Source: Planctomycetes bacterium UBA4800
GTDB lineage: Bacteria > Planctomycetota > UBA8108 > UBA8890 > UBA8898
Length of the DNA stretch: 46,695 nt
Reading direction: 5' to 3'
NCBI GenBank assembly: GCA_002402755.1
Contig: DHGK01000335.1
Coordinates: forward strand, 11,782 to 58,476
This document shows, piece after piece, positions 2,748 through 42,288 of the stretch (within the stretch, counting starts at the first letter, position 1; the number at the start of each line of letters is the position of its first letter). The notes under the pieces are model-generated. The model ran no database searches, was not told the DNA's origin, and was given only the letters and a program-made list of their open reading frames with translations. The position numbers and the translations under genes were made by a program.

Positions 2748-2764
2748 GCGTGCCTCCACGACCA

Positions 2765-22422: not shown

Positions 22423-22449
22423 GGCCGTTGATCATCTTATGGAGGCCAC

Positions 22450-26577: not shown

Positions 26578-27723
26578 CTACCCCCGCGCGCAGTCCAGCT
26601 TGTCGGGCGTCGGATCGATGCCCGGCGGCCCCGGCGGCGAGGGCGGCGGAATCACGCCCTGGCGGAAGAGATACGCCAGGATCTTGATCGCATCGGACAG
26701 GTCGAGGGCGCCGTCATCGTTGGCATCGGCCGCATCCATGCAGGGCGGCACGGGGCCCTGCGCGAAGAGGTAGCTCAGGAGGTAGATCGGGTCGGCGATC
26801 GTCATGTCGCCGTTGTCGTTGGCATCGCCGCGGATGAAGAGCGGCGGCCACATGAGCTGGATGATGCCGTTCTGCTTGACCGGCCGCACATCGAGCCCCT
26901 TGACGGCGTAGACGACAAGCACGGGCGGATCGCCGAGCCCGTCGACGAACGGCACCGCCATGCTGCGCGCGGCGCCGCCCGAGGGGATCAGGAGGTCGTA
27001 GACGAGGTTGGCGATGCGCTGCTCCTTTCCCGCCGGAATCGTCTGGCCCTCGAAGGGCGGCTCGGCGTCCAGGACGACGGCGAACGTGGCCCAGCCGGTA
27101 TCGATGACGGGCGAGGTCTCGCCGTTGTTGATGGCGAGCGCGACGAACTCGGCGCCGACCCGCTCCGTGATCGTGTCCCGGAGATCGATGCCGGCCATGC
27201 GCGCGTGCAGCAGGTTGAAGGTCACGCCGAACGAGAAGCCCTGGATCGGCGCGGCGTTCGTCGCGAACACGGGTACGACCACGCCGGGCGTCCCCATGTA
27301 CGCCCACACCTCGGGCGCCATGATCACGAAATCCTCGCACGCGGGCACCTCGACCGTGAAGGTCATCTTGTCGGTGCCGGGGAACGGCGCCACGGCGACC
27401 GTGTAGGTGCCGGGCGGCAGCCCCTCGATCGTCAGGCCCAGATCGAACCAGCAGACGCAGTCGCACGGCGGCCCGTTGTCGATCTCGACGATCGTGATGT
27501 CGAAGCCGTTGATGTCGACCCTGGGCTCGTACGCGAGGCAGCAGTTGATGTGGACCGACGTGTGCGTCATGCGCAGGACGCAGCCTTCCACCGTGACGTT
27601 CAGCGCGCCTTCAGTCGAGGGGGGCTCGGGCAGGCACTCGCTCTGGATGGGCGTGACGACCGCCGCATCGAGCACGGGAACACCGATCACGAGCAGCACA
27701 CCGGCAAGGACGATCGTTCGCAT
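26578..27723 (-). CDS. Secreted Cys-rich domain + cohesin-like module + dockerin protein
   Basis: 381 aa from ATG 27723 (GGGAGGTG RBS); signal 'MRTIVLAGVLLVIGVPVLDA'; 9-Cys N-domain ('HINCC','PPCDCVCWFD'); cohesin-like strands 'PIQGFSFGVTFN..'; dockerin 'GDANDNGDMTIADPIYLLSYLF' + 'ADANDDGALDLSDAIKILAYLF'. Confidence 0.8.
   Translation of the reverse strand: MRTIVLAGVLLVIGVPVLDAAVVTPIQSECLPEPPSTEGALNVTVEGCVLRMTHTSVHINCCLAYEPRVDINGFDITIVEIDNGPPCDCVCWFDLGLTIEGLPPGTYTVAVAPFPGTDKMTFTVEVPACEDFVIMAPEVWAYMGTPGVVVPVFATNAAPIQGFSFGVTFNLLHARMAGIDLRDTITERVGAEFVALAINNGETSPVIDTGWATFAVVLDAEPPFEGQTIPAGKEQRIANLVYDLLIPSGGAARSMAVPFVDGLGDPPVLVVYAVKGLDVRPVKQNGIIQLMWPPLFIRGDANDNGDMTIADPIYLLSYLFAQGPVPPCMDAADANDDGALDLSDAIKILAYLFRQGVIPPPSPPGPPGIDPTPDKLDCARG
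26656..26835 (-). other. Dockerin module (two Ca-binding loop/helix repeats), approximate bounds
   Basis: aa ~297-356 of the 381-aa protein: D-x-N-x-(D/N)-G-x(5)-D loops, each followed by a hydrophobic 'LLSYLF'/'ILAYLF' helix. Confidence 0.8.
26854..27333 (-). other. Cohesin-like module, approximate bounds
   Basis: aa ~131-290; alternating beta-strand pattern reads in register with clostridial cohesins by eye (e.g. 'VVVPVFATNAAPIQGFSFGVTFN..LHARMAGIDL'; 'GWATFAVVLDAE'; 'RIANLVYDL'; 'MAVPFVDG'); not verified by HMM. Confidence 0.5.
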
Positions 27724-27758
27724 CTGACACCTCCCGTTCGCGACACCTCTATTCTCGT

Positions 27759-27803
27759 AGTCTACGGGCCGCCGCCCGCGAGTCAACCAATTCCGGCGCG
27801 GAA
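27759..27803 (-). promoter_or_regulatory. sigma70-like promoter of the cohesin/dockerin gene with upstream AT-rich tract and TTCCG-gcg-CGGAA inverted repeat
   Basis: Minus strand: TTGACT (27786-27781), 16-nt spacer, TAGACT (27764-27759); upstream AATTAAT and TTCCGgcgCGGAA (27791-27803). Confidence 0.45.
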
Positions 27804-27828
27804 TTAATCGAACGGCAGCGGAAAGAAC

Positions 27829-27864
27829 GCGGGCTCCGGACGCCGTGAGGCGCCCGGAGCCCGC
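27829..27864 (-). terminator. Intrinsic-terminator-like hairpin after the 325-aa gene
   Basis: 16-position stem with one mismatch and a GTGA loop (GCGGGCTCCGGaCGCC-gtga-GGCGcCCGGAGCCCGC), about 50 nt past the stop at 27915; followed on the minus strand by GUUCUUUCC. Confidence 0.55.
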
Positions 27865-27914
27865 CCGTACCAGCGCTCGCCGGCCCTTGCCACGCGGCCG
27901 GCGGGGCGAAATCC

Positions 27915-28892
27915 TTACTTCGCCGCCGTGCGGACCACGGTCGTCGTCATCGAGGTCTTCGTCGTGGAGGTCTGACCGCTTCGCTCGCTCGATCGATCCG
28001 TCGCCGACTTGAGCTCGAGCTTCTGGAGAAGCCCGTCCTTCACTGCGACGAGCGCCGCGCCCTTGGCCTCGGCGCCCGCGCCGGGCCCCATGCCCGCGGC
28101 GGGGCCGCCGCGCGCGGACTGGGGCGCCTTCCTCACGACCGCGAACCTGGCGGCGTCCGCCTCCTGGCCCTCGTACGTGTACTCCAGGTTCATGCCGGCC
28201 ATGCGCCCGACGCCGCCGCGGCCCTTGCCCTTTTCGTCGGCGGCGGGCCGCTCGACGGGCGCGGTCTGGTAGGTCTTGCCCTTCTCGAGCGCGACGCCCT
28301 GGACCGGCGATGACAGGATGTACGACAGGTCGCGCGTGAGCGCGGTCGCGCCGACGGCGTTCATGCCGCGGAAGAAGCCGCCCACCACGGGCATGCGGCG
28401 CTTCCCCGGTTCCGCCGCGCCGCCCTTGGCATCCCTGCCGGCGGCGGTCCGTGCGGCCTCGGGGAACCCCGTGACCTCCTTGACCTTGCCGCCCGCCACG
28501 GCCGCCTTGACGGTGCTCTTCACGATCTTCTCCAGTTCCGCCGTCTCCGCGCCTCCGCCGGGCTTGGCCGAGTCGAACTCGAACGCGTTCCGGCCGCCCT
28601 CCTCCTTGATCTTCACCGAGGCGTACGTCACGGCGAGGACCAGGTCTCCGTTGTCCTTCCTGTCCTCGATCTTGATCGCGTACCGGACCTCGGTCGTGCT
28701 CGACCGCGTGAACGCGCCCTGCGCGTTGGTGCCCTCGGTTGCGGATGTCGTCGTCACCGTGTACTGGAGCGCATCGCCCTTGGCGAGCTTGAGCTCGACC
28801 TTGGCGGGCGCATCGGCCGCGCACAGCGCCGCGACCACGCCGCATGCCGCGAGACACACGAGGCTCAGTTGCATCAGTCGCCGTCCGTTCAT
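27915..28892 (-). CDS. Secreted Gly/Lys/Ala-rich hypothetical protein
   Basis: 325 aa; GGAAGGAGGAA RBS; signal 'MQLSLVCLAACGVVAALCAA'; beta-rich ends flank G/R/M/F-rich segments ('MPVVGGFFRGMNAVG','GKGRGGVGRMAGMN','ARGGPAAGMGPGAGAE'). Confidence 0.7.
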   Translation of the reverse strand: MNGRRLMQLSLVCLAACGVVAALCAADAPAKVELKLAKGDALQYTVTTTSATEGTNAQGAFTRSSTTEVRYAIKIEDRKDNGDLVLAVTYASVKIKEEGGRNAFEFDSAKPGGGAETAELEKIVKSTVKAAVAGGKVKEVTGFPEAARTAAGRDAKGGAAEPGKRRMPVVGGFFRGMNAVGATALTRDLSYILSSPVQGVALEKGKTYQTAPVERPAADEKGKGRGGVGRMAGMNLEYTYEGQEADAARFAVVRKAPQSARGGPAAGMGPGAGAEAKGAALVAVKDGLLQKLELKSATDRSSERSGQTSTTKTSMTTTVVRTAAK

Positions 28893-29029
28893 CGATCGAT
28901 TCCTCCTTCCGTCAGAGTCCGCGCCGCAGGCTCACCCCCACAGGCGTCCCGCGCGCGCAATGTACCTGAACCGCGCTCGGCGGCCGGCGGGGCGCCATGC
29001 TCCCGCCCGCGCGCGCCCGGCGCACGCCG

Positions 29030-32000
29030 TCATCTCAGCTTGATGTCGAAGCGGTTCGCTCCGCGCTTGATCGTGATCCTTCCGCCCTGCGGCCGCTCGC
29101 CCTCGTTCACGCGCACGGAGTACGAGTACGTGCCCGGCGCCAGACCGCGGACCTCGTAGCGGCCGTTCTCATCGGCGGCCGCGGTTTTCGTCAGGCCGCG
29201 CGCGTCCTGAACGGTCACGACCGCGAACGGCACGGCGGCGCCGGCCCTGACCGTTCCCGAGAGCGACAGGCCGTCCTCGAGCGCCGTCCTGATCTCCTTG
29301 GCGACGCCATCGTCGCGGATCTCGACCCTGCGCGTCTCGGGCAGAAAATCGCCGTGATGGACGATCACATCGTAGGCGCCGGGGGGAAGCTCCCTGAGCG
29401 TGAACACCCCCGTCTCGTCGCTGTACGTCACGGCCTTCTCGAGGCGCGCCGGGACGGCCCCGGCGGTCTTCTCCGGCGTCCTTCCGGCGCGGCGTTCATC
29501 GCGCGGCACGGCGACGACGTACACCTCCGCGCCGGCGAGAGGGCCGCGCTTCCCGGTCACGTACCCCGCAACGGAGAGGCCGTCCTCGAGCGGCACCACG
29601 ATGCCCTCGGTCACCTCGCCCTCGACGACCGTGACGATCACCTGCCTGCCGTTCAGCCCCTCGGCCGCGGCCTCCAGGTAGTACGTGCCCGGCGCCACCC
29701 CGTCGATCTCGAAGCTCCCGTCGGGGCTGGAGAACTCGCGCGGGAAGAACATGCCGCCGCCGGGGCCCCGGAACCGGCCGCGGCCGCCGTCCTCCTGGGA
29801 GCCATCGGCGCCCGTGGAGCTCAGCCGCACGCGGAAGCTCGTCACCCGCTCGCCGGTCCGCGCCAGGAGCACGATGCCGCGAAGACCGCCCGTGCGCGCG
29901 AGCACGACGGCGATCTCGATGTTGACCTTCACCTCGGGGAGCGACGCCTCGGCGAAGCCCTCGCACCGCGCCCTCACCGTGTACGGGCCCTCCCCGAGGC
30001 TTCCGAGCCGGAACCAGCCGTTCGCGTCGCTCATCGCGTTCGACCCGCGCCCGCCCGCCTGGCCGAACGCGGACAGCTCGGCGCCCTCGATGGGCACGCC
30101 GTCTCTGTCCCTGACGATGCCCGCGATGGCGTTCTCGGGAAGAAGGACGATGTCGAGGCCCGCCTCATGCTCCTCCACGAGCATCACGCGCGCCGTGAAC
30201 GGTTGATAGGTTTCGGGCGCGCACAAGGCCGAGTACGCGCCCCCCTCCAGGCCCGCAAAGCGCGTGCGGCCGTCGGTGCCGGTCATGCGCGTCGCGCCGC
30301 CGCGCCCGCCCGGCCCGCCCGGCCCGAAGGCCTGCCTGCCGCGGCCGCCCTCGGCCCCTTCGTCCGCCTCGCGGCGCAGCGACACGTTGACCTGCGGCAC
30401 CGGCACGCCCGCCGAATCGCGCACGAGGACGCGCAGGCTCGCACCCTCCGAGAGGATGTACTCCAGGCCCCCGCGCTGCTCGCCGGGACTCAGCGTGAAG
30501 CTCTCCGAGCGGAACGCCGCGTAGTCGGGGTGGCTGATGGCGATCTGGAGCGGCTTCTCGGTCGGCGCATCGGCGAGGACGAACGCGCCCGCCGCATCCG
30601 ACCTCCCCTGCGCCGTCTGCGCCGCGTCGCGCATGAAGCCGCCCGGCCGCATGCGCCCGCCCTGCTCGTCCTCGCGCACGGGACTCGCGACGATGCGCGC
30701 GTTGCGCACCGGCTCGCCCGACCGGCTCCTGATCGTCCCGCTGATCGAGGCGCTCGGCGTGAGCTCGATGAGCTCCTCGTGCGTCTCCTCGCCCGGCGCG
30801 ATGGCCACGTTCTCGAGCACCGCGGCGGTGAATCCCTGCGCGCGCACCTGCAGGCTCTCGATCGGGCCGGGGTGGAATCCGCTCAGCGCGAAGGCGCCGT
30901 CGTCGTCGGTTCGCGCGCGGCGCATGTCGAAGCGGCTCGCCCGCGCCTCGATCACGGCGCCCGGAACCGGCTGCCCGCTCCCGCGCGCCACCACCCTGCC
31001 TGCGAGCGTACCGCCCTTCTCGAGCGTGATCCTGAGCTCGCGCGGCTGTCCGGCTTCGACGCCGTCCGCGCGAAACGGCGCGTAGCGGTCCGCCTGCACG
31101 CTGATCGAGTACTGTCCCGCGCGCAGGGTATCGAACGAGAAGCGGCCGGCCTTGTCCGTCTCGACGGCCGCGCTGACGTCGAAGAGCGCGACAGGCTCGG
31201 GCCGCGGCGCGGCGCCGGGGGTCTCGGCCGGCGCCGCGTTTCCGCCGTCCTGTCCTCGCCCCCTGCGCATGCGCTCGAACGCCTGGCGCCGCTCGGCATC
31301 CTCGGGACGGAATTCGCCCGCCGCCACGAAGGCGCCGGAAACGGGCGCGCCCTTGGGGTCGAGCACGACGCCCGCGAGCACGACTCCGGCCTGGAGCTCG
31401 ACCGCGACCTCGACGGCCGCCGAGGCGCCCTCGATGCGTCCCCGCCGGCTTTCGCTCACGAATCCCGCCCTCTCGATGAATACCGTGAAGACCGCCTGCA
31501 GCACATCGACGAAGCGGCACGTGCCGTCCTTGCCGGTCTCGCCGCGCTCGTGGGGCGATTGCATCAGCCGCGTGAACGCTTCCCCGCCCGGGCCGCCGAA
31601 ACCCCGCCCGCCCGGGCCGCCGAAGCCCCGCCCGCCGGGGCCGCCGCGGCCCGGGAACGTCTCTCCGAGATACAGGCTCACGCGCGCTCCCGCGAGCGGT
31701 TTCCTGCTCGCGTCGGTCACGGTCACGAGAACGCCCGCCGAGGGCGGCAGCACGAGCGCGAGGTCCCTCGTGCCGGACGCGACATCGTGCGCCGACGCCT
31801 CCAGGCAGCCGCGCGCCGACGCGCTCACGCGGTACATGCCCGGCGGCACGGTCAGCCTGAAGAAGCCATCGCGGCCGCTCGCCGTCTGATCGACCAGTTC
31901 CTCGCCGCCGCCCATGGGCCCTCGCATCGGACGCGAGACGAGCGCGAGCACCCGGGCGCCCGCCATCGGGCGCCCGCGCTGATCGCTCACCACCCCCTCG

Positions 32001-32578
32001 ATCCAGTCGCCGGGCCCCAGCATGAAGTCGAGCCGGCTCGATTCCTCCGTGCGCGTCCACGCCAGGCCGAGCGGCGCGTGATCGTCATGCCGCGCGAGCG
32101 CCGCGTAGTCGCCGGGCGGAATGGAGGCGAGCGGGATGGCGTACGCGCCTGAGTCATCGGTCACCGCCTCGGCGACGCGCGCCCAGCCGGACTCCGCGGC
32201 CGCCTTGCCCAGGATCCGGTCGCGCAGCAACTGCATGCCGTCGCCGGCGCGGGCGAAGAGCTCGATGCCCGCGCCGCCCGACGCCGCGATGACGGCGACC
32301 TCGGCGCCCGGGATGCCGCGGTCGTCTTCGTCCGTGACGCGGCCGTAGAGACTCGGCACCGAGGGCACGCCGGACTCCGCGAACGGATCGGCGGTCGTCT
32401 CGGCGGCGGCGGGAACGGCGGCCGCGGGCGCCGCGGCCGGCTGCGCAGCCGTCGCGTCCCGATCGCCCGCGGGAACGCCCGCGCCGTCCGGAATGCCGGT
32501 GTCGGCCCGCATGAGGAAGAAGAGCACCGCCGCCGCGATCGCGAGCGACAGCACGAAGGCGGCGCCGAACTTTCGCAT
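29030..32578 (-). CDS. Membrane-anchored giant protein of about eleven CarboxypepD_reg-type (Ig-like) repeats with Arg/Gly-rich loop insertions
   Basis: 1,182 aa from ATG 32578 (alternative ATG 32614); N-terminal anchor 'MRKFGAAFVLSLAIAAAVLFFLM'; recurring 'G-x-V-x-D..G-x-P-(V/I)-x-G-A-x-V' seeds (e.g. 'GRVTDEDDRGIPGAEVAVI','GIVRDRDGVPIEGAELSAF') each followed by 'PG.Y.v.a...Gf'. Confidence 0.8.
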   Translation of the reverse strand: MRKFGAAFVLSLAIAAAVLFFLMRADTGIPDGAGVPAGDRDATAAQPAAAPAAAVPAAAETTADPFAESGVPSVPSLYGRVTDEDDRGIPGAEVAVIAASGGAGIELFARAGDGMQLLRDRILGKAAAESGWARVAEAVTDDSGAYAIPLASIPPGDYAALARHDDHAPLGLAWTRTEESSRLDFMLGPGDWIEGVVSDQRGRPMAGARVLALVSRPMRGPMGGGEELVDQTASGRDGFFRLTVPPGMYRVSASARGCLEASAHDVASGTRDLALVLPPSAGVLVTVTDASRKPLAGARVSLYLGETFPGRGGPGGRGFGGPGGRGFGGPGGEAFTRLMQSPHERGETGKDGTCRFVDVLQAVFTVFIERAGFVSESRRGRIEGASAAVEVAVELQAGVVLAGVVLDPKGAPVSGAFVAAGEFRPEDAERRQAFERMRRGRGQDGGNAAPAETPGAAPRPEPVALFDVSAAVETDKAGRFSFDTLRAGQYSISVQADRYAPFRADGVEAGQPRELRITLEKGGTLAGRVVARGSGQPVPGAVIEARASRFDMRRARTDDDGAFALSGFHPGPIESLQVRAQGFTAAVLENVAIAPGEETHEELIELTPSASISGTIRSRSGEPVRNARIVASPVREDEQGGRMRPGGFMRDAAQTAQGRSDAAGAFVLADAPTEKPLQIAISHPDYAAFRSESFTLSPGEQRGGLEYILSEGASLRVLVRDSAGVPVPQVNVSLRREADEGAEGGRGRQAFGPGGPGGRGGATRMTGTDGRTRFAGLEGGAYSALCAPETYQPFTARVMLVEEHEAGLDIVLLPENAIAGIVRDRDGVPIEGAELSAFGQAGGRGSNAMSDANGWFRLGSLGEGPYTVRARCEGFAEASLPEVKVNIEIAVVLARTGGLRGIVLLARTGERVTSFRVRLSSTGADGSQEDGGRGRFRGPGGGMFFPREFSSPDGSFEIDGVAPGTYYLEAAAEGLNGRQVIVTVVEGEVTEGIVVPLEDGLSVAGYVTGKRGPLAGAEVYVVAVPRDERRAGRTPEKTAGAVPARLEKAVTYSDETGVFTLRELPPGAYDVIVHHGDFLPETRRVEIRDDGVAKEIRTALEDGLSLSGTVRAGAAVPFAVVTVQDARGLTKTAAADENGRYEVRGLAPGTYSYSVRVNEGERPQGGRITIKRGANRFDIKLR
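31587..31658. repeat. In-frame 24-nt tandem repeat (about 3 units) encoding (GGPGGRGF)n
   Basis: cccgggccgccgaaaccccgcccg / cccgggccgccgaagccccgcccg / ccggggccgccgcggcccgggaac; minus-strand translation 'GRGGPGGRGFGGPGGRGFGGPGGEAF'. Confidence 0.85.
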
Positions 32579-32731
32579 TGCCGTGACTCCGGGGAACAAC
32601 GCCGGGAGCCGCATGAAAACTCACGAGTGCGGGCCGGCGGCGGCTCCTCTCCGGTTTCAACACCGCACGAAGGCGTAAGTGGCGTCCGGAGGGTCGATCC
32701 GAGCCCGCCGCGGGTGCGACAGGAGGCCCCG

Positions 32732-32769
32732 GCGGGGCTGATGGGCGTTCGGCCGCCCGTCAGCCCCGC
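32732..32769 (-). terminator. Long GC hairpin 20 nt after the LamG/dockerin gene stop (U-less terminator-like)
   Basis: 16-bp stem (one G-U) GCGGGGCTGATGGGCG-ttcggc-CGCCCGTCAGCCCCGC; no U-tract. Confidence 0.4.
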
Positions 32770-32788
32770 ACGCGTCCTCGCCGGCGGA

Positions 32789-35788
32789 TCAATTGCACGG
32801 CTTCTCGCACGGGGGCAGCGTGCTGACCGTCTCCGGGAAGTACGGCTTGCCGTCAGAACTGTCGATGCCGTTGGCATCGTAGGGCGTGCACGTGTTGTTG
32901 GCCGCCGTGACCGTGCCGTGGTCCGGCGCAAGCATCGCCCCCCCGCTGAACAGGTACGCGAGGATCTTGATCGCGTCGGCGATGTCCAGCTTGTTATCGT
33001 CGTTCGCGTCCGCAGCCTTCGCGCACACGGGCGGCGGCTTCAGCCCGCCCCCGAAGAGGTACCCGAGGAGCGTGATCGCATCGGCGATGTCGACCTTGCT
33101 GTCCGTGTTGACGTTGCCCATGAGGATGCTGATCGTGTCGCCCTGGCCCACGGGCAGCGTCACGCCGCAGGAGATGCCCGCCGACTCGACGCCGCCCTTC
33201 ACGGCGACGACGGTGTACGTGTGGGCGCCATCGGGCTGGCCGGCAAGCACCGCCTGGACGGCCGCGCCCGCAAGCGTCGCCAGCACCGCGGCGCCCTCGC
33301 GCACCTCGATCGAATTGTAGGTATCGCCGTTGGTCCAGGTGAGCGTCACATCGTTGCCCGATCCGCGGCAGGCAAGCTGCGAGACCGGGACCGTGGGGGC
33401 GCCGCTCTGGGGAGCCACGGCGCCGTACTTGATCTTGATGAAGTCGATCTCGAACGCGGTCGCGCCATCGGTGCTCATCGCGCCCGCGAGAATCGCGGTG
33501 AAGGGAACGGTCATATCGGCGAAGAGCCCTTCCTCCCAGCGGTCCGCGTTCTCGGGCGCGGTGCGCCAGTCGGGCCTGATGGGGACCGTGTCGCCGTTCA
33601 GGTAGATCGCGCTGTGGTAGGCGCCGTTCCGGTCGGTGTCCTGGGTCATGTACCAGACCGACACCCACTTGCCGGGCTCCAGGCCGTAGATGTCGCCGCC
33701 GTCGCTGACGTCCAGCATGTCATTGACCAGCGACATCCCGAAGGACCGCGAGCCGACCGCGCTGTCGTTTGCGGCCGTGTCGCCGTCGTGGTAGCACAGC
33801 GTGATCATGCCGTGGCTCGAGTCCCGCACCGCCGTGCCGACGGGCGCATCGGCGACATCGCGCGGATCGGGCGTCAGCCGCCACCTGACGTAGATGGTCA
33901 CGCCCTCGGCGTAGCGGCCGCCCGCGGGGTTGGCAGGCGGGGCGAGCAGGCGGCCGAGCATGATCTTGCGGTTGCTCGGATCGGGATACCCGCCCGTGGT
34001 GGGATTGCCCGGGTCCTCGATCGAGAGCGTCTTGATGCTCTGGCCGAACAGGCCCTCCCCGGGCCGGCTGCGGATCTCGACGCCGCCGGGGGCGATGAGG
34101 ACGGGATCGCCGGGCAGCGTGTACACGCCGGGGGCCGAGCCGTCCCACCAGTCGGTCGCGACCGAGCGGATCCACGATCCGTCCAGGCACCCCTCGACGC
34201 CCTTCTGGGCGACGTACATGTCCATGGGATTGGACACGGGATCGTGGGCCTCCGGGTCGTAGACGTAGTCCCAGCCGCCGGCGGGCTCGAGGTAGGGCTC
34301 CTCATCGCGCATCATGACCACGCGGTTGGAGGCGATCGCCCCGCACGGCGTGCCGGCCGCCGGCACCAGCGTCAGTCCGTACGTGACCTCGCCGTCGGCC
34401 GGCGTCAAGGTCGAATCCCAGTACTCGAGCGCAACGGCCGGCAGGTTGTTGTTCAGGGTCACGCCCCCGCGCGAGATCTCGAGGCGCGTCACCGCGTACG
34501 GGAGCGCGCCCCACGCGATGTGCACCGCCGGCGGCAGGCGCGTGTAGTCGACGGTTGCGCGCACGGTGACGCCGGGGCAGTAGCTGACGAAGCACGAGAC
34601 CGCCGGGAGCGGCGCGCCGCCGGCGATCGCCCGCACCCCGTACTGATGCTGGCCGATGACAAGCTCGGTCGTGCTGTAGCTCGCCGACGCGCCGGGCAGC
34701 GCTTCGAGCACCGTGCCGTCCCGCAGCACCTCGATCGCGTCGTAGACCGCGCCGGCGGGCACGGTCCACGTCACGTTGAGCGCCGGCGGGTCCACGGCCG
34801 TGTCGATCGCGCAGCCGAGCCCTGTCGGCGGCGCCTGCGTCTGGCCGGGGCGGAGGAAGCCCACCTTGTAGCCCATGTAATCGAGATCCATGGCCGCGGC
34901 CGTGCCCTTGACCGGAAGCCCGAACGCGATGTAGTCGTCGGGATCGGAGCCTGTCTCATCGCTGCTCAGGGGATCGAAGAGCTCCTGCGCAAAGGCGGGC
35001 GTCGTCGCGCCGTTCAGGTACACCTCGACGCGGTAGGTGTCGAGCGCCGTGAGCAGCACCGCCATCCACACCGTCACGAAGTTCGTGGGGCTGCCGGCGT
35101 AGTTGAGATCGTACTGGTCCATCAGGAAGAGCTTGCCGTCCGGCATGAACGAGATCGATGCGTTGATGTCGGACTGGTCGACCACGCTGAGCATGCCCTT
35201 GCCGCGATTGGCGGCCTCGGTGACAAATCCCGCGCTCACCCAGTTCTGGCCGGCGGGCGGCAGCGCATCCCTGGGGTCCGGCGTGAGGCGCCACCTCGCG
35301 ATCACGGTCACGCCCTGCTTGATGCTGGCCAGGTTCGTCGTCTGGCCCGGGAGCCACACGGGATGCAGGAAGTAGACGGCCTCGTTGGCCGGCGTCGTCC
35401 ACGCGAAGTTGAAGGGATTGCCGGTCGCGACGGTCGTGTCGCCCGCGACTTCCAGCGCAAGCACCGTCGCGTTTCCGCCGCCATCGCCGAGCCCGGCGCG
35501 CACCAGGAGCTCCGCGCCGCCGGGCGCGTCGCCGGCCGGATCGGCGAGGCTGTACTGCCCGGGCAGGCTGCCGTCCCAGAAGTAGGTCTCGATGCCGCCC
35601 ATCCACTCGCCGTTCAGGAGGCCCGTGATCATGGTGCCGGAGAGCGCGACATACTGCGCCTCCCCGGCATTGGCCTCGTACACGTAGTCCCACCCGCCGG
35701 GCGGATCCTGCCAGCCGCCGCGGCCGAGCGCCGTTCCCGCACCGATGCCGACCGCGATGAGAACCGCCGCAAGACTCCCTCTCCGCAT
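32789..35788 (-). CDS. Secreted protein with duplicated LamG-like + Fn3-like modules, C-terminal dockerin and Cys-containing tail
   Basis: 999 aa; AAGGAG RBS; signal 'MRRGSLAAVLIAVGIGAGTALG'; internal duplication (aa ~25-315 vs ~500-792: 'GGWDYVYEAN..' / 'GGWDYVYDPE..'; 'VTVIARWRLTPDPRD' / 'VTIYVRWRLTPDPRD'); dockerin 'GNVNTDSKVDIADAITLLGYLF' + 'ADANDDNKLDIADAIKILAYLF'. Confidence 0.85.
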   Translation of the reverse strand: MRRGSLAAVLIAVGIGAGTALGRGGWQDPPGGWDYVYEANAGEAQYVALSGTMITGLLNGEWMGGIETYFWDGSLPGQYSLADPAGDAPGGAELLVRAGLGDGGGNATVLALEVAGDTTVATGNPFNFAWTTPANEAVYFLHPVWLPGQTTNLASIKQGVTVIARWRLTPDPRDALPPAGQNWVSAGFVTEAANRGKGMLSVVDQSDINASISFMPDGKLFLMDQYDLNYAGSPTNFVTVWMAVLLTALDTYRVEVYLNGATTPAFAQELFDPLSSDETGSDPDDYIAFGLPVKGTAAAMDLDYMGYKVGFLRPGQTQAPPTGLGCAIDTAVDPPALNVTWTVPAGAVYDAIEVLRDGTVLEALPGASASYSTTELVIGQHQYGVRAIAGGAPLPAVSCFVSYCPGVTVRATVDYTRLPPAVHIAWGALPYAVTRLEISRGGVTLNNNLPAVALEYWDSTLTPADGEVTYGLTLVPAAGTPCGAIASNRVVMMRDEEPYLEPAGGWDYVYDPEAHDPVSNPMDMYVAQKGVEGCLDGSWIRSVATDWWDGSAPGVYTLPGDPVLIAPGGVEIRSRPGEGLFGQSIKTLSIEDPGNPTTGGYPDPSNRKIMLGRLLAPPANPAGGRYAEGVTIYVRWRLTPDPRDVADAPVGTAVRDSSHGMITLCYHDGDTAANDSAVGSRSFGMSLVNDMLDVSDGGDIYGLEPGKWVSVWYMTQDTDRNGAYHSAIYLNGDTVPIRPDWRTAPENADRWEEGLFADMTVPFTAILAGAMSTDGATAFEIDFIKIKYGAVAPQSGAPTVPVSQLACRGSGNDVTLTWTNGDTYNSIEVREGAAVLATLAGAAVQAVLAGQPDGAHTYTVVAVKGGVESAGISCGVTLPVGQGDTISILMGNVNTDSKVDIADAITLLGYLFGGGLKPPPVCAKAADANDDNKLDIADAIKILAYLFSGGAMLAPDHGTVTAANNTCTPYDANGIDSSDGKPYFPETVSTLPPCEKPCN
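32939..33136 (-). other. Dockerin module of the 999-aa protein, approximate bounds
   Basis: aa ~885-950; two Ca-loop/helix repeats; the second repeat nearly matches the second repeat of the 381-aa protein ('DAIKILAYLF' in both). Confidence 0.8.
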
Positions 35789-35937
35789 GATGACTCCTTT
35801 TCCGGCTCCGGCCCCGGGATCCCAGCCCCGCTTTCAACCCATGCTCCTCGCGCGTGCGAGCGCGGGCGCGAACACCCTGCCCGCGCAACCCGCTCCCGGA
35901 CGCCTGCAACGCCGAATGAGAACACCTTACGGGATCT

Positions 35938-35966
35938 ATTGTACAGGGGGAGGCAGGCCCGTGCAA
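35938..35966 (-). promoter_or_regulatory. sigma70-like promoter of the LamG/dockerin gene
   Basis: Minus strand: TTGCAC (35966-35961), 17-nt spacer, TACAAT (35943-35938); implies a GC-rich 5' UTR of about 140 nt. Confidence 0.45.
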
Positions 35967-35994
35967 AGTACGCATCGCCCGCTGCGCGAGGATC

Positions 35995-37407
35995 TCACGC
36001 CGGGGCGCCGGACTGGGTTCGGGCCTGCAGCGCGGCGGCGCTGCAGGCGATTTCCAGGCGGTAGCCGCCGCCGGGCAGCTTCTCGGCCGTGTCGACGATC
36101 ATCGGCCGATCCGGAACGCCCCCATCGGCATCGCGCGTCACGTGCACGACGGGGTGGGCGGCATCGCACGGGTTCGTCGTCGCGACCGCGCCCTCGGAGC
36201 CGTCGGTGAGGCGCACCGGCGTTCCGGGCGGGAAGATGCCGAAATGACGGAGGAACAGATCCACGCAAAGCGGATTGAATTCGCTGCCCACGCCGCGAAG
36301 CAGCACATCGGCCGCGCGCTCGGGCGTGAAGGGCTTCTTGTACGGCCGCTTGGCGGTCAGGGCCTCGTAGACGTCGATCACGTTGACGAGCTGCGTCAGC
36401 GGATCGACCGTGATCGGCATCGCGAGCGAGGGGTACCCCTGCTGGTCGTAGCGCAGGTGATGCCCGAAGGCCACGTTGATCGCGATCTCGGCCGCGCCCT
36501 GCGCTTCCATGAGAATCTTGGCGCCCAGCACGGGATGCTGGCGCATCACCGTCCATTCGGCATCGCTCAGCGCTCCCGGCTTGAAGAGCACCTCGTCCGG
36601 AATCAGGATCTTGCCCACGTCGTGGAGCAGGGCCGCCTGGGCGACGGCGACGAGCTCCTTCTTGTCGGTCATCAACTGCTCGGCGACCGCCGTCGCGTAG
36701 ATGCAGGCGTTCACCGAGTGGTTGAACGTGTAGCTGTCGTAGTCCTTCACCGATGCCATGGCGACGAAGCCGTTGCGGTCCCTGGCGAGCGCGTCGGTGA
36801 GCCTCACGGCGATGTCCTGCGTCTGGGTCAGCGACACCTTGCGGTCGCGCTTGAGGTTGCCGACGAAGTCGCGGATGCCGCCGAGGGCCCAGGTGTAGAC
36901 CTCGACGCACGGCTCGCCGGATTCCGCAATGCAGTCCTCGCGCGGGGGCGCGGGCTCGCGGCCCGACGATGCCGCCTCCTGCGGCGGCGCCTCGCGGAGG
37001 GGCTTGACCTGAAGGGCGGCGTGCACAATCTCCCGGTGGGCCAGCAGCGCGTTGAACTCCTCGGCCGAGCGCGTGCGCGCCTGGAGCAGCGCCTTGACCA
37101 GCGCCACGATCTCGTCGGCCGTGATGCCGCGCGAGAAGCGTATCCCGAAGCCGCCGCGCTCGCCGATCACATCCATCAACCGGTGCGCGCGCACGCTCAG
37201 ATCGTACAGCGGCGCCCCGTCGACGATCAGAAGCCCCTTCACGACGCCGAGGACGAAGCTCTCGCGGCCCTGGAAGTGCAGGTCGAGCGCGGCGGCGGCC
37301 TCCTTCGACGCCTCGGCGACGCGCCGGTGCTCGGGGAAGTACACCGTGCCGTTCATGAGCGCGACGGAGAGCGCCTGCACGATCCTGTCGGCCGGCTCAC
37401 TGTGCAT
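35995..37407 (-). CDS. HD-GYP domain protein (c-di-GMP phosphodiesterase family) with N-terminal sensor-like module
   Basis: 470 aa from ATG 37407; 'HSVNACIYA', 'AALLHDVGKILIP', 'MRQHPVLGAKIL', 'GHHLRYDQQGYPS' = HD...GYP motifs; start overlaps the upstream gene's 3' end by 11 nt. Confidence 0.85.
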   Translation of the reverse strand: MHSEPADRIVQALSVALMNGTVYFPEHRRVAEASKEAAAALDLHFQGRESFVLGVVKGLLIVDGAPLYDLSVRAHRLMDVIGERGGFGIRFSRGITADEIVALVKALLQARTRSAEEFNALLAHREIVHAALQVKPLREAPPQEAASSGREPAPPREDCIAESGEPCVEVYTWALGGIRDFVGNLKRDRKVSLTQTQDIAVRLTDALARDRNGFVAMASVKDYDSYTFNHSVNACIYATAVAEQLMTDKKELVAVAQAALLHDVGKILIPDEVLFKPGALSDAEWTVMRQHPVLGAKILMEAQGAAEIAINVAFGHHLRYDQQGYPSLAMPITVDPLTQLVNVIDVYEALTAKRPYKKPFTPERAADVLLRGVGSEFNPLCVDLFLRHFGIFPPGTPVRLTDGSEGAVATTNPCDAAHPVVHVTRDADGGVPDRPMIVDTAEKLPGGGYRLEIACSAAALQARTQSGAPA

Positions 37408-39649
37408 TGCGCTCCTCCTCCGACAGCCGCGGGCGCTGCGTGAGCCGCGCCTGCACCGTCTCCGCCACGGACCTGGCCTGGGCCCGCAGCTCGCGCCCCT
37501 TCGCCGAGAAGAAGAGGCGCCAGTCGCCGGAGATCGCCCGCACGACATCGAGGCACCGCGCCGTGCCCAGGCGCCGCAGCGACCCGAGGCACGCCTGCTG
37601 CTCCTCGATGTCCGCCTTGCCGGCGCGCCCGCCGCGGAGCTGATCGGCCAGGATCTCCTCGGCCATCGTGTTGGTCGAGTAGCCGAGCATCTTGATGATC
37701 GTCACGCGCACATGGAGATCGGCGGTCGCAAGCTCGCAGGAGAGCACGCGGAGCGCCTCGCGGTTGTCGATCTCGATCAGCCGCGTGATGAGCCGGTGGC
37801 GGGCATCCGACCCCACGCGCGGAAACAGCCGCTCGATCGCGTCCACGGCCGCGGGCGAGCCGCAGGCGAGCACGCACCCCACGATGCGCTCGAGGCGGCC
37901 GGACCGCGTTTCGGCGGCGACCTTCATCGCGAGGAACCTGCACAGATCCTCGTCGCACAGCGGACAGAACTCCTGCAGCCGCGCCTCCGGCATCTCGGCG
38001 CTGCGAGTCAGCAGCAGCGTGCCGAACGCCTGCGCGAACACGGCGCGCGCGCGCTTCGCGACGGCCCTGAGCGCCACGTACCACACCATTTCGTTCGCAT
38101 CGATGAGACGGCCGAGCGCCCACGTGCAGACGGCCGGCTCTTCCGCCAGGATCGTCCGGTCCGAGTCCCGCAGCATCATGCCGCCGGCCTCCGTGACGCC
38201 CGTCATGAGCGCCGCGCCCTCCTGCGCGTCCGACTCCAGGTTCCTGTTCAGGAACGCCGCCAGGCGCCGCCCGATGCCGTCGCGCGCCGCGGCATCCTGC
38301 TCGCGTTCCACGAGCGCGAGCAGGGTGTCCCGGTGGCCGAGCTTGACCTTCGCGGGATCGAGCCTGAGCATCGCGCCGTTGCATTTCTCGGTCAGCGCCG
38401 CGAGGCCGCGCACGACATCCGCGATCGTCGCATCGGGGGGAACGCCGGCGCGCTTCGCGGGCGGCGCGGCCGCAGGCGCCTTCCCGGGCGGCGCGGCCGG
38501 CGTCATTCCCGGCGCGGCGGCCGGCGCCGCCGCGGGCGCCGCGCCGGGCACTTCGAGCGTCGTCATGACCGACGTGCCGAGACGGATGCTCCGCGCCGCG
38601 CCGCTGGTGCGGCTGAAGATGGCGCGGAGCGCCTCGGCGCTGCCCTCGCCGTTCTGCGTCCGCACCGACCGCGAGTCGCTGAGCCAGTGCCGCACGGCAT
38701 CGCGCGATCCGAAGAGCGTCGTGGCCACGGTGCTCAGCGTCTGCTCCTGGGACGCCACGGCCGCGCGCACGGCCGCGCTCGCCAGATCGGTCTTCATCCT
38801 GTCGAGCAGCGCCGCGATCTGGGCCTTCCGGGGAAGCGTGAGCTCGGCGCCGTCGGCGCTCGCGGCGCCGAGCTCGCGCACGAGCAGGAGCAGCACGTCG
38901 CTGGCGCGCACCTGGGTCGTCGCCCGGACGCCCTCCGCCGCCGCGTCGCTTCCTCCCACGAGCGCGCCGAGCGCGCCGAGCTTCTCCCGTATCGCGCCGT
39001 CGGCCAGGAGCTCCTTCAGAAGCCGGCGCTCATCGGCGCTGACGCGCTGCTCGGCGAACTTCCCGAGAACCTCCTCCGGCTTCCCCGCCGCGTTGCAGCG
39101 CGCCAGGGTGCGCACGAGCTCGACATCGCTGGGGTCCTCGACGTACCGCTGCATGTCGTACGAGAACTCCATGACGGTGATCGCGGCCGCGTTCGCCCCG
39201 GCGATGACCGCGGCCGCCCCGCCGCGCGCCTTGAGCTCGGCGGGATCGAGCAGCAGAATATCGGCGACCGCGGCCAGGTCCTCCGCCCTCACGCCGGGCG
39301 CGGCGGCGACGTGGCGCACGAGGCGCCGGATGAACTCGGCGGTGAGCTCGGCCGCGAAGGGCTCGCGGTCGTCGAGCCGCCGGCCCGCGATGATGAGCGC
39401 ATCGGGCTCGACGTACAGCGTCAGCTCCGGGACTGCGGCGAGGATCTCGACCGCCGCCCGGTGCCAGGCGTCGAGCTGCGCGACGGGGCGCGCGTGTCCC
39501 GGCGGGTAGAGCTTCCTGCTCTTGACGTAGCCGAGGAGGCGGCGGAGGAACTCGCGCAGGAGGCGGAGCTCGGGGCCGGCCGGCCCGCCTTCCCCCGCGG
39601 GCTCCGCCCCGCCGGAACGCTCGCGCTGGTCACGATTGTGGATGATCAT
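37397..39649 (-). CDS. Large cytoplasmic protein: N-terminal module paralogous to the HD-GYP protein's N-terminus, central Ala-rich region, C-terminal HEAT-like repeats
   Basis: 750 aa from ATG 39649; 'YVKSRKLYPPGHARP...LTLYVEPDALIIAGRRL' parallels 'NGTVYFPEHRRV...FVLGVVKGLLIVDGAPL' of the next gene; C-terminal 'AVDAIERLFPRVGSDARHRLITRLIEIDNREALRVL..' HEAT-like. Confidence 0.7.
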   Translation of the reverse strand: MIIHNRDQRERSGGAEPAGEGGPAGPELRLLREFLRRLLGYVKSRKLYPPGHARPVAQLDAWHRAAVEILAAVPELTLYVEPDALIIAGRRLDDREPFAAELTAEFIRRLVRHVAAAPGVRAEDLAAVADILLLDPAELKARGGAAAVIAGANAAAITVMEFSYDMQRYVEDPSDVELVRTLARCNAAGKPEEVLGKFAEQRVSADERRLLKELLADGAIREKLGALGALVGGSDAAAEGVRATTQVRASDVLLLLVRELGAASADGAELTLPRKAQIAALLDRMKTDLASAAVRAAVASQEQTLSTVATTLFGSRDAVRHWLSDSRSVRTQNGEGSAEALRAIFSRTSGAARSIRLGTSVMTTLEVPGAAPAAAPAAAPGMTPAAPPGKAPAAAPPAKRAGVPPDATIADVVRGLAALTEKCNGAMLRLDPAKVKLGHRDTLLALVEREQDAAARDGIGRRLAAFLNRNLESDAQEGAALMTGVTEAGGMMLRDSDRTILAEEPAVCTWALGRLIDANEMVWYVALRAVAKRARAVFAQAFGTLLLTRSAEMPEARLQEFCPLCDEDLCRFLAMKVAAETRSGRLERIVGCVLACGSPAAVDAIERLFPRVGSDARHRLITRLIEIDNREALRVLSCELATADLHVRVTIIKMLGYSTNTMAEEILADQLRGGRAGKADIEEQQACLGSLRRLGTARCLDVVRAISGDWRLFFSAKGRELRAQARSVAETVQARLTQRPRLSEEERNAQ

Positions 39650-39981
39650 GCCGTCGATGCACTCGGACCCTGCGCGGCCGGCGGCGCACCCGGAGATGCG
39701 GGGCGGCCGCGCATCCTGTCTCCCCTTACCGCAGAATAATGCCGTGCGCGGCGACATCCGTCACATCGCCGCGACGCGGCGCGGCGGCGGCGCGCCGCGT
39801 GCGCGCGCGGGCGGAGCGCGCACCGGCGTTTCCGCGCGGGGCGCGCCTGCCACGGACCGGGAATCCGATGCCCCCGGGCGGCGCGCCGAGCCGTGCAACG
39901 CATCACGAAAACGGTTATTCTTGAGGCTATCCCGCGTGTTTCGGGAACATGGGAGAGCGGCCGAGCTTCCGAGGAGGAGCC

Positions 39982-40923
39982 ATGAAGACCTCGCGGCGAT
40001 CGTTCATGCACCGGACCGGGGCGCTCGCGGCAGCGGGCGCGCTGCCTGCGGCACCGCTCTTCGGGGGAGCGGCTCCCGCGCGCGAGCCCATCGCGCGGCA
40101 GGGCCCGCCGTCGATCAAGGTGAGCTGCTGCGCGTACTCGCTGCGCCAGTACCTCTCCGGCGGGAGCCCGTCCATGACCATGGACGATTTCCTCGTCTGG
40201 GCGGCCGGACTGGACCTGGACGGCGTCGAGCTCACCAGCTACTACTTCCCGCCCGATGCCGATGCCGCCTACTTCAACCGCCTCAAGCGGCGGGCGTTCC
40301 TGCTGGGGCTCGACGTGTCGGCCACGGCGGTCGGCAACAACTTCTGCGTGCCGGCCGGCCCCCAGCGCGACAAGGAGATCGCGGCGGTGAAGCGCGGCGT
40401 CGACTGGGCGGTCATGCTCGGCGCGCCCTGCGTGCGCGTGTTCGCGGGCGGCGCTCCCAGGGACGTGCGCGAGGACACGGCCAGGCAGTGGGTCATCGAG
40501 GGCATCGAGGCGTGCTGCGCGTACGCCGGCGAGCGCGGCGTCATGCTGGCGCTCGAGAACCACGGCGGCCTCACGGCCGATGCGGCCGGCGTGCTCGCGA
40601 TCGTCGAGGGCGTCGCGTCCCCCTGGTTCGGCCTCAACTTCGACTCGGGCAACTTCCACTCCGAGGATCCGTACGCCGAGCTCGCGCGCATCGCCCCGCA
40701 CGCGATCACGACGCACATCAAGGTCGCGGTGTCGGCCAAGGGCAGGCCGCCCGAGGAGGTCGACATCGGGCGCGTGTTCTCCATTCTGAGAAACGCCGGC
40801 TTCCGCGGCTACGCGGCGCTCGAGTACGAGGGCAAGAACGAGCCCAGGGCGGACTCGGCCAAGTACCTGCGCGCCATGCAGGCGGCGGCGCGCGCCGCGC
40901 CCGCGGGCGGCGCTCGCTCGTAG
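39982..40923 (+). CDS. Tat-exported sugar phosphate isomerase/epimerase (xylose-isomerase-like TIM barrel)
   Basis: 313 aa from ATG 39982 (GGAGGAG RBS); 'SRRSFMHRTGALAAAGAL' Tat signal; 'VRVFAGG', 'LALENHGG', 'LNFDSGNF', 'YAALEYEG'. Confidence 0.8.
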   Translation: MKTSRRSFMHRTGALAAAGALPAAPLFGGAAPAREPIARQGPPSIKVSCCAYSLRQYLSGGSPSMTMDDFLVWAAGLDLDGVELTSYYFPPDADAAYFNRLKRRAFLLGLDVSATAVGNNFCVPAGPQRDKEIAAVKRGVDWAVMLGAPCVRVFAGGAPRDVREDTARQWVIEGIEACCAYAGERGVMLALENHGGLTADAAGVLAIVEGVASPWFGLNFDSGNFHSEDPYAELARIAPHAITTHIKVAVSAKGRPPEEVDIGRVFSILRNAGFRGYAALEYEGKNEPRADSAKYLRAMQAAARAAPAGGARS

Positions 40924-40924
40924 C

Positions 40925-41800
40925 ATGCGATTCCGGCTCGAATGCGTCGAGTGCATCGTCCGCCAGGCGCGGAGGACGGCCGAGAGGTGCACGCCCGACC
41001 CCGCGCGCAGGCTCGCGATCATCAAGGAGACAATGCGCCGCCTGTGCGCGGACCCGCTCGACCGGTCGCCGGCCGAGCATTCTCTCGCCGCCTACGCTGC
41101 GGCGGCGGAGCTCTCCGGCGTCGCGGACCCGTTCCGCGAGAGCAAGGCCGAGCAGAACGCCATCGCGCTCGCCATGTATCCCGCGCTCCGCGAGCGCGTC
41201 GCGCGCTCGCCGGACCCGCTCCGCACGGCCGCGAAGCTGGCCGTCGCCGGCAACGTCGTCGACCTGGGCGTCGGGCTCGCGTTCGATGTGCGCGAGGAGG
41301 TCGAGAAGGTGCTCGGCGGCACGCTCGCCGTGGATCACTTCGCGCGCTTCAAGGAGGAGCTCGCCTCGGCGCGCACGCTGCTCTTTCTGTGCGACAACTG
41401 CGGCGAGATCGTGTTCGACAGGCTCTTCATCGAGACCGTGCGCGCGCATTTCCCCGCGCTGCGGGTGTTCGCCGCCGTCAAGGGCGCCCCCATCATCAAC
41501 GATGCGACGCTGGACGATGCGGCCGCCGTGGGGCTCGCCGCGGCGGCCGAGGTCGTCTCGACGGGCTGCGCCTGCATTGGCGCGCCGCGCGCCGCCATCG
41601 CCCCCCGCCTCGTCGAGCTTCTCGATTCCTGCGACCTGGTCATCGCCAAGGGCCAGGGGAACTTCGAGACGGCCGGCGGCCCGCCGCGCCCGATGTACTT
41701 CCTGCTCAAGGCCAAGTGCCCCTGCATCGCCGAGGAGCTCGGCGTGCGCTTCGGCGATGTCGTCTTCATGCGGCGGCCCGCGCCCGCGCCGGAGGCGTGA
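40925..41800 (+). CDS. DUF89/ARMT1-like metal-dependent phosphatase ('damage-control' phosphatase family)
   Basis: 291 aa; N-terminal 'CVECIVRQ', 'LFLCDNCGEIVFD', 'VIAKGQGNFE' = DUF89 D-N-x-G-E and K-G-x-x-N-x-E motifs; begins 1 nt after the upstream stop. Confidence 0.8.
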   Translation: MRFRLECVECIVRQARRTAERCTPDPARRLAIIKETMRRLCADPLDRSPAEHSLAAYAAAAELSGVADPFRESKAEQNAIALAMYPALRERVARSPDPLRTAAKLAVAGNVVDLGVGLAFDVREEVEKVLGGTLAVDHFARFKEELASARTLLFLCDNCGEIVFDRLFIETVRAHFPALRVFAAVKGAPIINDATLDDAAAVGLAAAAEVVSTGCACIGAPRAAIAPRLVELLDSCDLVIAKGQGNFETAGGPPRPMYFLLKAKCPCIAEELGVRFGDVVFMRRPAPAPEA

Positions 41801-41851
41801 CGGCGGCCGCCGGCTCTGCTACAATGAGCGTGCACTCGGGAGCACCGAACC

Positions 41852-42208: not shown

Positions 42209-42226
42209 AGAAGTGCCGGCCTTCCC

Positions 42227-42245
42227 GGGGCGCCGAAGGCGCCCC
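42227..42245. terminator. Perfect 8-bp GC hairpin between convergent arsR-like and lptD-like genes
   Basis: GGGGCGCC-gaa-GGCGCCCC; no clear U-tract on either strand. Confidence 0.35.
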
Positions 42246-42288
42246 AAAGAGGTGCCGCAGCTACCTTCACCTCCAGCCTACAGCCTCC

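Follow-up and report, generated by a model that had tools for sequence, protein, structure and literature searches.

A predicted cohesin-dockerin adaptor and a dockerin protein with GGWDY domains in a six-gene array of an uncultured planctomycete: a plausible non-cellulosomal docking system

Introduction

What do a cohesin and two dockerins do in a gene array with no recognizable carbohydrate-active enzyme? This question is raised by six consecutive minus-strand genes, here named G6-G5-G4-G3-G2-G1 in the direction of transcription, at positions 26578-39649 of a 46,695-nucleotide stretch of DNA from Planctomycetes bacterium UBA4800 (contig DHGK01000335.1). This stretch was analyzed at its full length and is referred to as the window. 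A preliminary description of the array had proposed that G1, with a cohesin-like module and a dockerin, and G4, with a second dockerin, form a self-assembling set in which G3 could serve as a stalk or anchor and in which an HD-GYP protein and its neighbor could act as a switch. Here, we report that G1 is a predicted cohesin-dockerin adaptor, that comparative data modestly support a pairing between cohesins of this type and the dockerin of G4, and that a docking system other than a cellulosome is plausible at this locus.

Cohesin-dockerin pairs are among the strongest protein-protein interactions known. To our knowledge, they are well understood only in the cellulosomes of Firmicutes, and we know of no demonstrated partners or function for the copies outside cellulosomes, of which Planctomycetota have many. 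Peer et al. are said, in papers that cite their 2009 work, to have described non-cellulosomal cohesin/dockerin modules across life. Two proposed or known systems are of particular relevance here. ScaC of Ruminococcus flavefaciens combines a cohesin with a dockerin and is described as an adaptor scaffoldin (PMC5429695). The "planctosome" of freshwater Nemodlikiaceae is a hypothetical non-cellulosomal cohesin/dockerin assembly based on genomics alone (Andrei et al. 2019, PMC6461901). In that model, a lamin-tail-domain protein with a cohesin is the anchor, a hyaline-repeat protein is the adaptor, and dockerin-bearing M12B/M14 peptidases are the cargo (PMC6461901).

Results

G1 is a predicted adaptor with a cohesin and a dockerin

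The window has a G+C content of 70%. The six genes were picked out by a coding-type G+C content at third codon positions (GC3) of ~0.9 and lie on the minus strand where they had been placed, except that the start of G5 was corrected (see below). The same proteins are also encoded on contigs of JGI metagenomes and on NCBI contig DMJR01000042.1 (GCA_003452155.1), and the closest named relatives are metagenome-assembled genomes labelled Planctomycetes or Planctomycetota bacterium, e.g., ADurb.Bin069. The host of the locus is an uncultured Planctomycetota bacterium. In direct scans using Pfam and NCBIfam, no protein of the window itself gave a Cohesin, LamG or HEAT match; therefore, we tested these labels using relatives and structure.

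G1 (26578-27723, minus strand) encodes a secreted adaptor-like protein of 381 amino acids (aa). Based on an alignment of 21 orthologs (48-88% identity) and an AlphaFold2 (AF2) model with a predicted local distance difference test score (pLDDT) of 83.8, G1 consists of a signal peptide, a Cys-rich β-sandwich, a cohesin, a dockerin and a Pro-rich Cys tail. For the cohesin module (aa 130-292; 26848-27336, minus strand), Pfam Cohesin (PF00963) gave no match to G1 itself at E≤0.1, and a profile of the G1 orthologs recovered no cohesin from the PDB by sequence. Using Foldseek with the AF2 model, we found that the top 38 PDB matches were all cohesins, with E values of 2e-9 to 3e-5 and target template modeling (TM) scores of 0.51-0.79; the best match was the cohesin of R. 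flavefaciens ScaC (5lxv_A, E 2e-9). The modelled module thus agrees with the nine-stranded β-sandwich of solved cohesins. Two paralogs, P0078 and P0090, align to aa 127-290 of G1 at 34-35% identity; their matches to Pfam Cohesin, which cover this same region, score 25.8 and 28.4 bits (cut-off, 24.1).

The dockerins of G1 (aa 296-356; 26656-26838, minus strand) and G4 (aa 887-950; 32939-33130, minus strand) scored 13.6 and 18.7 bits, respectively, as single sequences against Pfam Dockerin_1 (PF00404), which has a gathering threshold of 22.9 bits; several orthologs and paralogs exceed this threshold. Both dockerins have two Ca-loops of the DxNxDGxxxxxD type, DANDNGDMTIAD and DANDDGALDLSD in G1 and NVNTDSKVDIAD and DANDDNKLDIAD in G4, each followed by a modelled helix, and the second helix (DAIKILAYLF) is identical in the two proteins. 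Against the dockerins in the PDB, a phmmer search with the G1 sequence gave E 0.011, the G1 ortholog profile matched both repeats of solved type I dockerins with E 1e-4, and a profile of 11 G4 orthologs gave E 6e-7. With a local dockerin hidden Markov model (HMM), G1 and G4 scored 118 and 96 bits. These results agree with the preliminary description, which had read duplicated dockerin loops at the ends of both proteins and a cohesin-like module in G1.

We consider the cohesin and dockerin calls in G1 correct because of the structural matches to cohesins, the paralogs that pass Pfam Cohesin and the dockerin profile. Thus, aa ~130-292 of G1, as judged from its model, is a cohesin module. The presence of a cohesin and a dockerin on one polypeptide is the layout of an adaptor scaffoldin of the ScaC kind, and 108 of the 120 G1 matches listed combine the same dockerin type with a module of the cohesin fold.

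The N-terminal Cys-rich β-sandwich of G1 (aa 21-128; 27340-27663, minus strand) is confidently modelled and contains seven invariant Cys residues and a nearly invariant one, as well as NCCL and GPPCDCxC motifs. We found neither a family nor a function for this domain, and it is present in 24 of the 120 G1 matches listed. At the other end of the protein, conservation within G1 peaks in the Pro-rich tail IPPPSPPGPPGxDPTxDxLxC (aa 357-381; 26581-26655; mean identity, 0.82). The linker between the dockerin repeats has an invariant Cys328, and the tail has an invariant Cys378; tails of a similar kind are also found after the dockerins of G4 and of paralogs. It is possible that the Cys residues of linker and tail form a disulfide clasp onto the dockerin.

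G4 is a secreted dockerin protein with two GGWDY domains

G4 (32789-35788, minus strand) encodes a secreted protein of 999 aa with FN3 and dockerin matches. The alignment of 11 orthologs and an AF2 model with a pLDDT of 68 support the order signal peptide, GGWDY, FN3, FN3, GGWDY, FN3, dockerin and Cys-containing tail. The GGWDY domain comprises ~290 aa, starts with a GGWDY motif, has invariant W, Y, N, R and D residues, and is β-rich with ~13 strands modelled at moderate confidence. Domain 1 (aa 24-316; 34841-35719, minus strand) and domain 2 (aa 500-792; 33413-34291, minus strand) share ~30% identity, and the alignment together with tblastn cross-matches identifies domain 2 as an internal duplicate of domain 1.

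These domains had been called LamG in the preliminary description. For LamG families, we found no match at E≤10 for G4, for the isolated domains or for 19 aligned copies of the domain. More generally, Pfam gave nothing for G4 in these regions or for the isolated domains and nothing consistent among the 19 copies; a sub-threshold Polysacc_lyase match (E 0.004-0.006) was given by one copy, from a distant homolog. A profile of the 19 copies gave no sequence match in the PDB, and in a whole-chain Foldseek search with the G4 model, all matches were driven by FN3 and had a root mean square deviation of >20 Å. Because sequence matches in Pfam and the PDB are lacking and the fold search is dominated by FN3, the LamG label is not supported, and we leave the domain unclassified. 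Verrucomicrobia and Bacteroidaceae have distant homologs of the GGWDY domain in secreted proteins with PEP-CTERM or type IX secretion system (T9SS) sorting tails (L021, L023, L024 and L026), which argues that the domain is extracellular.

Cohesin genes lie near G4-family genes in half of the independent contexts

In three of six independent contexts, a cohesin gene is located within 5 kb of a G4-family gene, each time with a different paralog and in a different position. First, G1 lies ~5 kb downstream of G4 in the window and in L010, a relative of the ADurb.Bin069 type. Second, in L015 (GCA_041308185.1), a gene for a 436-aa protein with a signal peptide, two cohesins and a dockerin (Coh-Coh-Doc) is located directly upstream of G4; this protein is a paralog distinct from G1. 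Third, the G4 ortholog in L028 (46.5% identity) has genes for a Coh-Doc and a Coh-Coh-Doc protein 1.5-4 kb downstream on the opposite strand. Apart from these genes and the G1 orthologs, a broad HMM of 154 planctomycete cohesin domains detected no cohesin gene in any of the loci analyzed, which include the remainder of the window and ~143 kb of further planctomycete flanks. The probability of three of six versus none arising by chance, a rough estimate from a small sample, is well under 0.1 even at the upper-bound background rate. The presence of cohesin genes near G4 in half of the contexts and in none of the background therefore lends modest support, from gene neighborhoods, to a pairing between these cohesins and the dockerin of G4.

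The array lacks the hallmarks of a cellulosome

Using Pfam and NCBIfam, we found no glycoside hydrolase (GH), carbohydrate-binding module (CBM), polysaccharide lyase (PL) or carbohydrate esterase (CE) family at or near threshold in the six proteins, in agreement with the earlier observation that GH and CBM signatures are absent. In the window, dockerins are present only on G1 and G4 and thus on no carbohydrate-active enzyme, and the single cohesin is linked to neither an anchor nor a CBM, as it would be in a scaffoldin. The count of one cohesin and two dockerins with no carbohydrate-active catalytic domain therefore stands as proposed, and makes a non-cellulosomal cohesin-dockerin reading reasonable. 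The accompanying idea that these modules are a self-sufficient set does not stand, as no cohesin with a membrane or wall anchor is encoded in the window.

Conservation of the array is partial, and it probably comprises several transcription units

The full six-gene order was found only in L010, L011, L017 and L029, all of the ADurb.Bin069 type and 69-83% identical. In the L010 type, the identities are 69% for G6, 76% for G5, 83% for G4, 74% for G3, 75% for G2 and 80% for G1. The flanks (window 24142-26568, plus strand, and 39925-44796) are also collinear and are 86-89% identical. Because the flanks are collinear and more conserved, the full order can be put down to close relatedness and is of little use as a guide to function. 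We note that the six proteins evolve faster (69-83%) than the flanks (86-89%) between the window and L010, which is typical for envelope proteins.

In L015, G6, G5, the 436-aa gene, G4, G3 and G2 follow each other up to the contig end at 56-67% identity. The true G1 ortholog of GCA_041308185.1 (69% identity) is on another contig (L009) between unrelated genes. L014 retains G6-G5-G4. At ≤55% identity, we found no linkage of array genes: orthologs of G1 with 52-55% identity are solitary, and G4 orthologs at 46-53% identity (L012, L013, L027 and L028) lack G2, G3, G5 and G6 as neighbors. A metagenome scan for further G4 contexts returned mostly close relatives on short contigs and added no independent context. 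Thus, the array is not a single conserved operon. The preliminary description had itself named conservation of the gene order in related genomes as a measure of its proposal, and by this measure the strict six-gene claim fails.

In L009, a gene for a dockerin-bearing Peptidase_C25 protein (11416-15282) lies directly downstream of the G1 ortholog, and a gene for a dockerin-bearing β-helix protein (1673-3118) lies ~7 kb upstream of the ortholog. Based on this placement beside other dockerin proteins, G1-type adaptors may serve different cargo in different genomes. A 784-aa neighbor of the L009 ortholog was compared with the 784/836-aa gene upstream in the window, and the two did not match.

A terminator-like hairpin between G2 and G1 (27829-27864, minus strand) has a 16-bp stem with 14 GC pairs followed by the T-rich GTTCTTTCC; its fold z-score is −4.2, and none of 200 shuffles folded as well. 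Directly after the G4 stop codon, a stable GC-rich hairpin without a clear T-run (32732-32770, minus strand; fold z-score, −2.47) is a possible terminator. In a scan based on consensus only, we detected promoter-like sites upstream of G4 (TTTGCA-18-TACAAT; 35938-35967, minus strand) and upstream of G1 (TTGACT-16-TAGACT; 27759-27786, minus strand), i.e., two sites versus 0.5 expected in shuffles. The array is probably divided into several transcription units (G6-G5, G4, G3-G2 and G1) rather than being a single operon.

G6 and G5 are a translationally coupled pair with a shared N-terminal domain

G5 (35995-37407, minus strand) encodes a protein of 470 aa that matches Pfam HD_5 with 69.8 bits (cut-off, 27.2) and HD with 46.4 bits. 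Residues H262, D263, H316, H317, D321 and G324-Y325-P326 are invariant in four orthologs. The HD-GYP assignment made previously is thus sound, and G5 is, by these motifs, an HD-GYP-type phosphodiesterase with putative cyclic di-GMP (c-di-GMP) activity. The start had been placed at 37548; we correct it to the ATG at 37407, which is preceded by the ribosome-binding site GGAGGAGG. With this start, G5 overlaps the stop codon of G6 by 11 nt, and the same overlap is repeated in L010, L014 and L015. G6 and G5 are a translationally coupled cytoplasmic pair.

G6 (37397-39649, minus strand) encodes a 750-aa cytoplasmic protein assigned to a HEAT-repeat family, with HEAT-like repeats placed at aa ~550-700. 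G6 itself has no Pfam or NCBIfam match, and to this extent the HEAT label given to it was not borne out directly. The label is supported indirectly, by way of relatives: exhaustive HMMER searches with G6 identified 123 relatives at E≤1e-3, two full-length relatives (P0141 and P0143) have a C-terminal HEAT_2 above the gathering score, and the family profile matches alphaRep/HEAT structures at aa ~550-691 of G6.

BLASTP of G6 against G5 gave nothing, and only profile-profile comparison revealed that aa 34-162 of G6 (39166-39550) are homologous to aa 9-135 of G5 (37003-37383), with an hhalign probability of 91.6% and an E value of 8e-7. This N-terminal domain of ~130 aa has a Y-[PF]-P-x-H-x-R motif and belongs to no Pfam family. 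The shared domain together with the 11-nt overlap suggests that the two proteins are heteromeric or co-sensing partners.

G3 and G2 are candidate envelope proteins

G3 (29030-32578, minus strand) encodes an 1182-aa protein with a hydrophobic anchor at the N-terminus and 10 CarboxypepD_reg (PF13620) stretches in Pfam (E 3.5e-104, 341.7 bits), close to the approximately eleven repeats counted before. It scored 63.9 bits against the NCBIfam model for the Kustd1514 anammox S-layer protein, for which the cut-off is 1400. Using the local HMMs, we detected neither a cohesin nor a dockerin in G3, and the suggestion that it is the stalk or anchor of the docking set is not supported. Gly/Arg/Pro-rich low-complexity inserts, such as FPGRGGPGGRGFGGPGGRGFGGPGG, interrupt the repeat array at aa 308-332, 751-761 and 931-942.

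G2 (27915-28892, minus strand), which had not been characterized in the preliminary description and which consistently follows G3 in L010 and L015, encodes a secreted protein or putative lipoprotein of 325 aa. It has no significant family in Pfam or NCBIfam; in an alignment of three orthologs, a lipobox-like L-[AV]-A-C at aa 14-17 is conserved. We note that G2 has ~293 aa in L001 (8928-9806), another assembly, in which the remaining locus is 100% identical.

Elsewhere in the window, at ~21375-23850 between esterase and galactokinase genes, there is a gene for an AAA_14/DUF4143 ATPase together with a PhdYeFM/ParE toxin-antitoxin pair. This stretch is absent from the same position in L010 and thus is a small lineage-specific insertion.

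Discussion

Based on the domain content and comparative data, a non-cellulosomal docking system at this locus is plausible. In the reading that we favor, G4 is displayed via cohesin-dockerin adaptors, G3 and G2 are its partners in the envelope, and the HD-GYP pair is linked to c-di-GMP; we assign this reading a probability of about 0.5. In this scheme, the cohesin of G1, or that of a paralog resembling it, would capture the dockerin of G4 in a Ca2+-dependent manner, and the adaptor's own dockerin would plug into a further cohesin-bearing anchor encoded outside the window. Through these links, a protein with a binding or adhesive role would be presented in the cell envelope, of which G4, G3 and G2 would be joint components, and the HD-GYP pair could tie the expression or deployment of these proteins to the c-di-GMP level. 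In favor of this reading, the order G6-G5-(x)-G4-G3-G2 is kept in L015 at 56-67% identity and G6-G5-G4 in L014, cohesin genes recur beside G4-family genes in three forms, G1 has the layout of ScaC, and the second dockerin helix is shared by G1 and G4.

Several observations weigh against the favored reading. No anchoring cohesin is present in the window, and G3 is without a docking module. G1 orthologs of four other lineages (L004, L005, L007 and L009) do not have G4, G3, G2 or G5 as neighbors, and in three of the six independent G4 contexts no cohesin gene is nearby. Dockerin genes are common, with ~4 extra in 118 kb of flanks, i.e., ~1 per 30 kb; therefore, two dockerins within 13 kb are unremarkable. 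In a crude comparison, conservation of the 8-3-6-5 sheet of the cohesin, the putative dockerin face, is 0.66 versus 0.73 for the opposite sheet. Finally, c-di-GMP is tied to the secreted proteins by adjacency only, with synteny within one clade, and searches for riboswitches and other RNAs in the window and the locus, c-di-GMP riboswitches included, found none.

Many of these points also fit a coincidental neighborhood, in which independent envelope and secreted genes lie side by side, the cohesin and dockerins are functional with partners elsewhere, and the HD-GYP pair is unrelated. The solitary G1 orthologs, the terminator-like and promoter-like sites that G1 has of its own, the G4 orthologs found away from G2, G3, G5 and G6, and the density of dockerin genes are all expected if the neighborhood is fortuitous, as is the fact that the only full six-gene match (L010/L017) shares all flanks, i.e., is collinear over the whole region. 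However, chance does not readily account for cohesin genes near G4-family genes in three arrangements compared to none in ~143 kb of background, or for a G6-G5-G4-G3-G2 order in L015 that outlasted a rearrangement which removed G1 and inserted another gene. On balance, we regard a coincidental neighborhood as unlikely, although far from negligible.

The favored reading can be extended to a c-di-GMP-gated "adhesosome," in which a lectin-like GGWDY/FN3 protein, G4, would be displayed via G1 or Coh-Coh-Doc paralogs, G3 and the lipoprotein G2 would provide envelope-spanning support, and the HEAT/HD-GYP pair would be the on/off switch. In this complete form, the proposal is a long shot; if true, it would be the first case in a Gram-negative-type bacterium of a cohesin-dockerin display system that is regulated and non-enzymatic.

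It is improbable, in our view, that the planctomycete dockerin with its Cys tail instead serves, as a Ca2+-stabilized C-terminal module, in folding, export or attachment to the envelope, and that the cohesin fold binds something else. This idea draws on the conservation of G1, which is highest in the dockerin (0.77) and the Pro-rich tail (0.82) and includes the invariant Cys328 and Cys378, on the putative dockerin face of the cohesin not being specially conserved, and on a literature search that turned up no cohesin-dockerin pair from Planctomycetota. It is at odds with the coupling of this dockerin type to a cohesin fold in 108 of the 120 G1 matches listed, as in scaffoldins, and with a Ca-loop/helix pattern that fits solved cohesin-binding dockerins over both repeats. 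Equally doubtful is a polysaccharide-degrading, cellulosome-like complex, in which docking would recruit GGWDY as a carbohydrate-binding or lyase/hydrolase module of a new type: the invariant polar and aromatic residues of GGWDY (W, Y, N, R and D), the weak lyase match in one distant homolog, and the neighboring genes for an AXE1/GCE-like esterase in the window and a GH32 protein in L012 would fit such a complex, but the six proteins have no GH, CBM, PL or CE family at or near threshold, the lyase match occurs in just one of 19 GGWDY copies, and the window esterase lacks a dockerin and is convergently transcribed.

How does the locus compare to known systems? Like G1, ScaC (5LXV), its best structural match, is small and secreted and carries one cohesin ahead of a C-terminal dockerin. 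The sequences are only ~15% identical, and unlike ScaC, G1 has an additional N-terminal Cys-rich β-sandwich and a Pro-rich Cys tail. Moreover, the G1 locus has no dockerin-bearing glycoside hydrolases and is hosted by a member of Planctomycetota with a Gram-negative envelope. The planctosome likewise has an adaptor with both a dockerin and a cohesin and, as here, was proposed from genomes. In contrast to the planctosome, the candidate cargo at the present locus is the non-enzymatic GGWDY/FN3 protein G4, no cohesin anchor is nearby, an HD-GYP pair is adjacent, and G1 represents a distinct adaptor family with a Cys-rich domain, a cohesin and a dockerin. Cohesin/dockerin modules outside cellulose degradation are also represented by 2XDH of Archaeoglobus and 2JH2 of Clostridium perfringens, both among the Foldseek matches of the G1 model, with hosts and partners that differ from those here. 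The locus is thus a further case of the non-cellulosomal cohesin-dockerin systems already proposed for Planctomycetes.

The remaining genes also have known counterparts. HD-GYP phosphodiesterases that act on c-di-GMP include RpfG and PmGH; G5 resembles such proteins in having an HD_5/HD domain with intact HD, HH, D and GYP motifs, and differs from them in having no receiver domain and, instead, the N-terminal domain of ~130 aa in common with G6. G3 shares tandem CarboxypepD_reg/Ig-like repeats and a planctomycete host with the Kustd1514-type anammox S-layer glycoprotein, but lies outside that family based on its score and has an N-terminal anchor and Gly/Arg-rich inserts.

For the cohesins and dockerins of Planctomycetota, the locus and its relatives supply a concrete candidate pair, i.e., a G1-type cohesin and a G4-family dockerin. 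Binding between the two, if shown by experiment, would be the first experimental foothold on planctomycete cohesin-dockerin assemblies and would provide new orthogonal docking modules for protein engineering.

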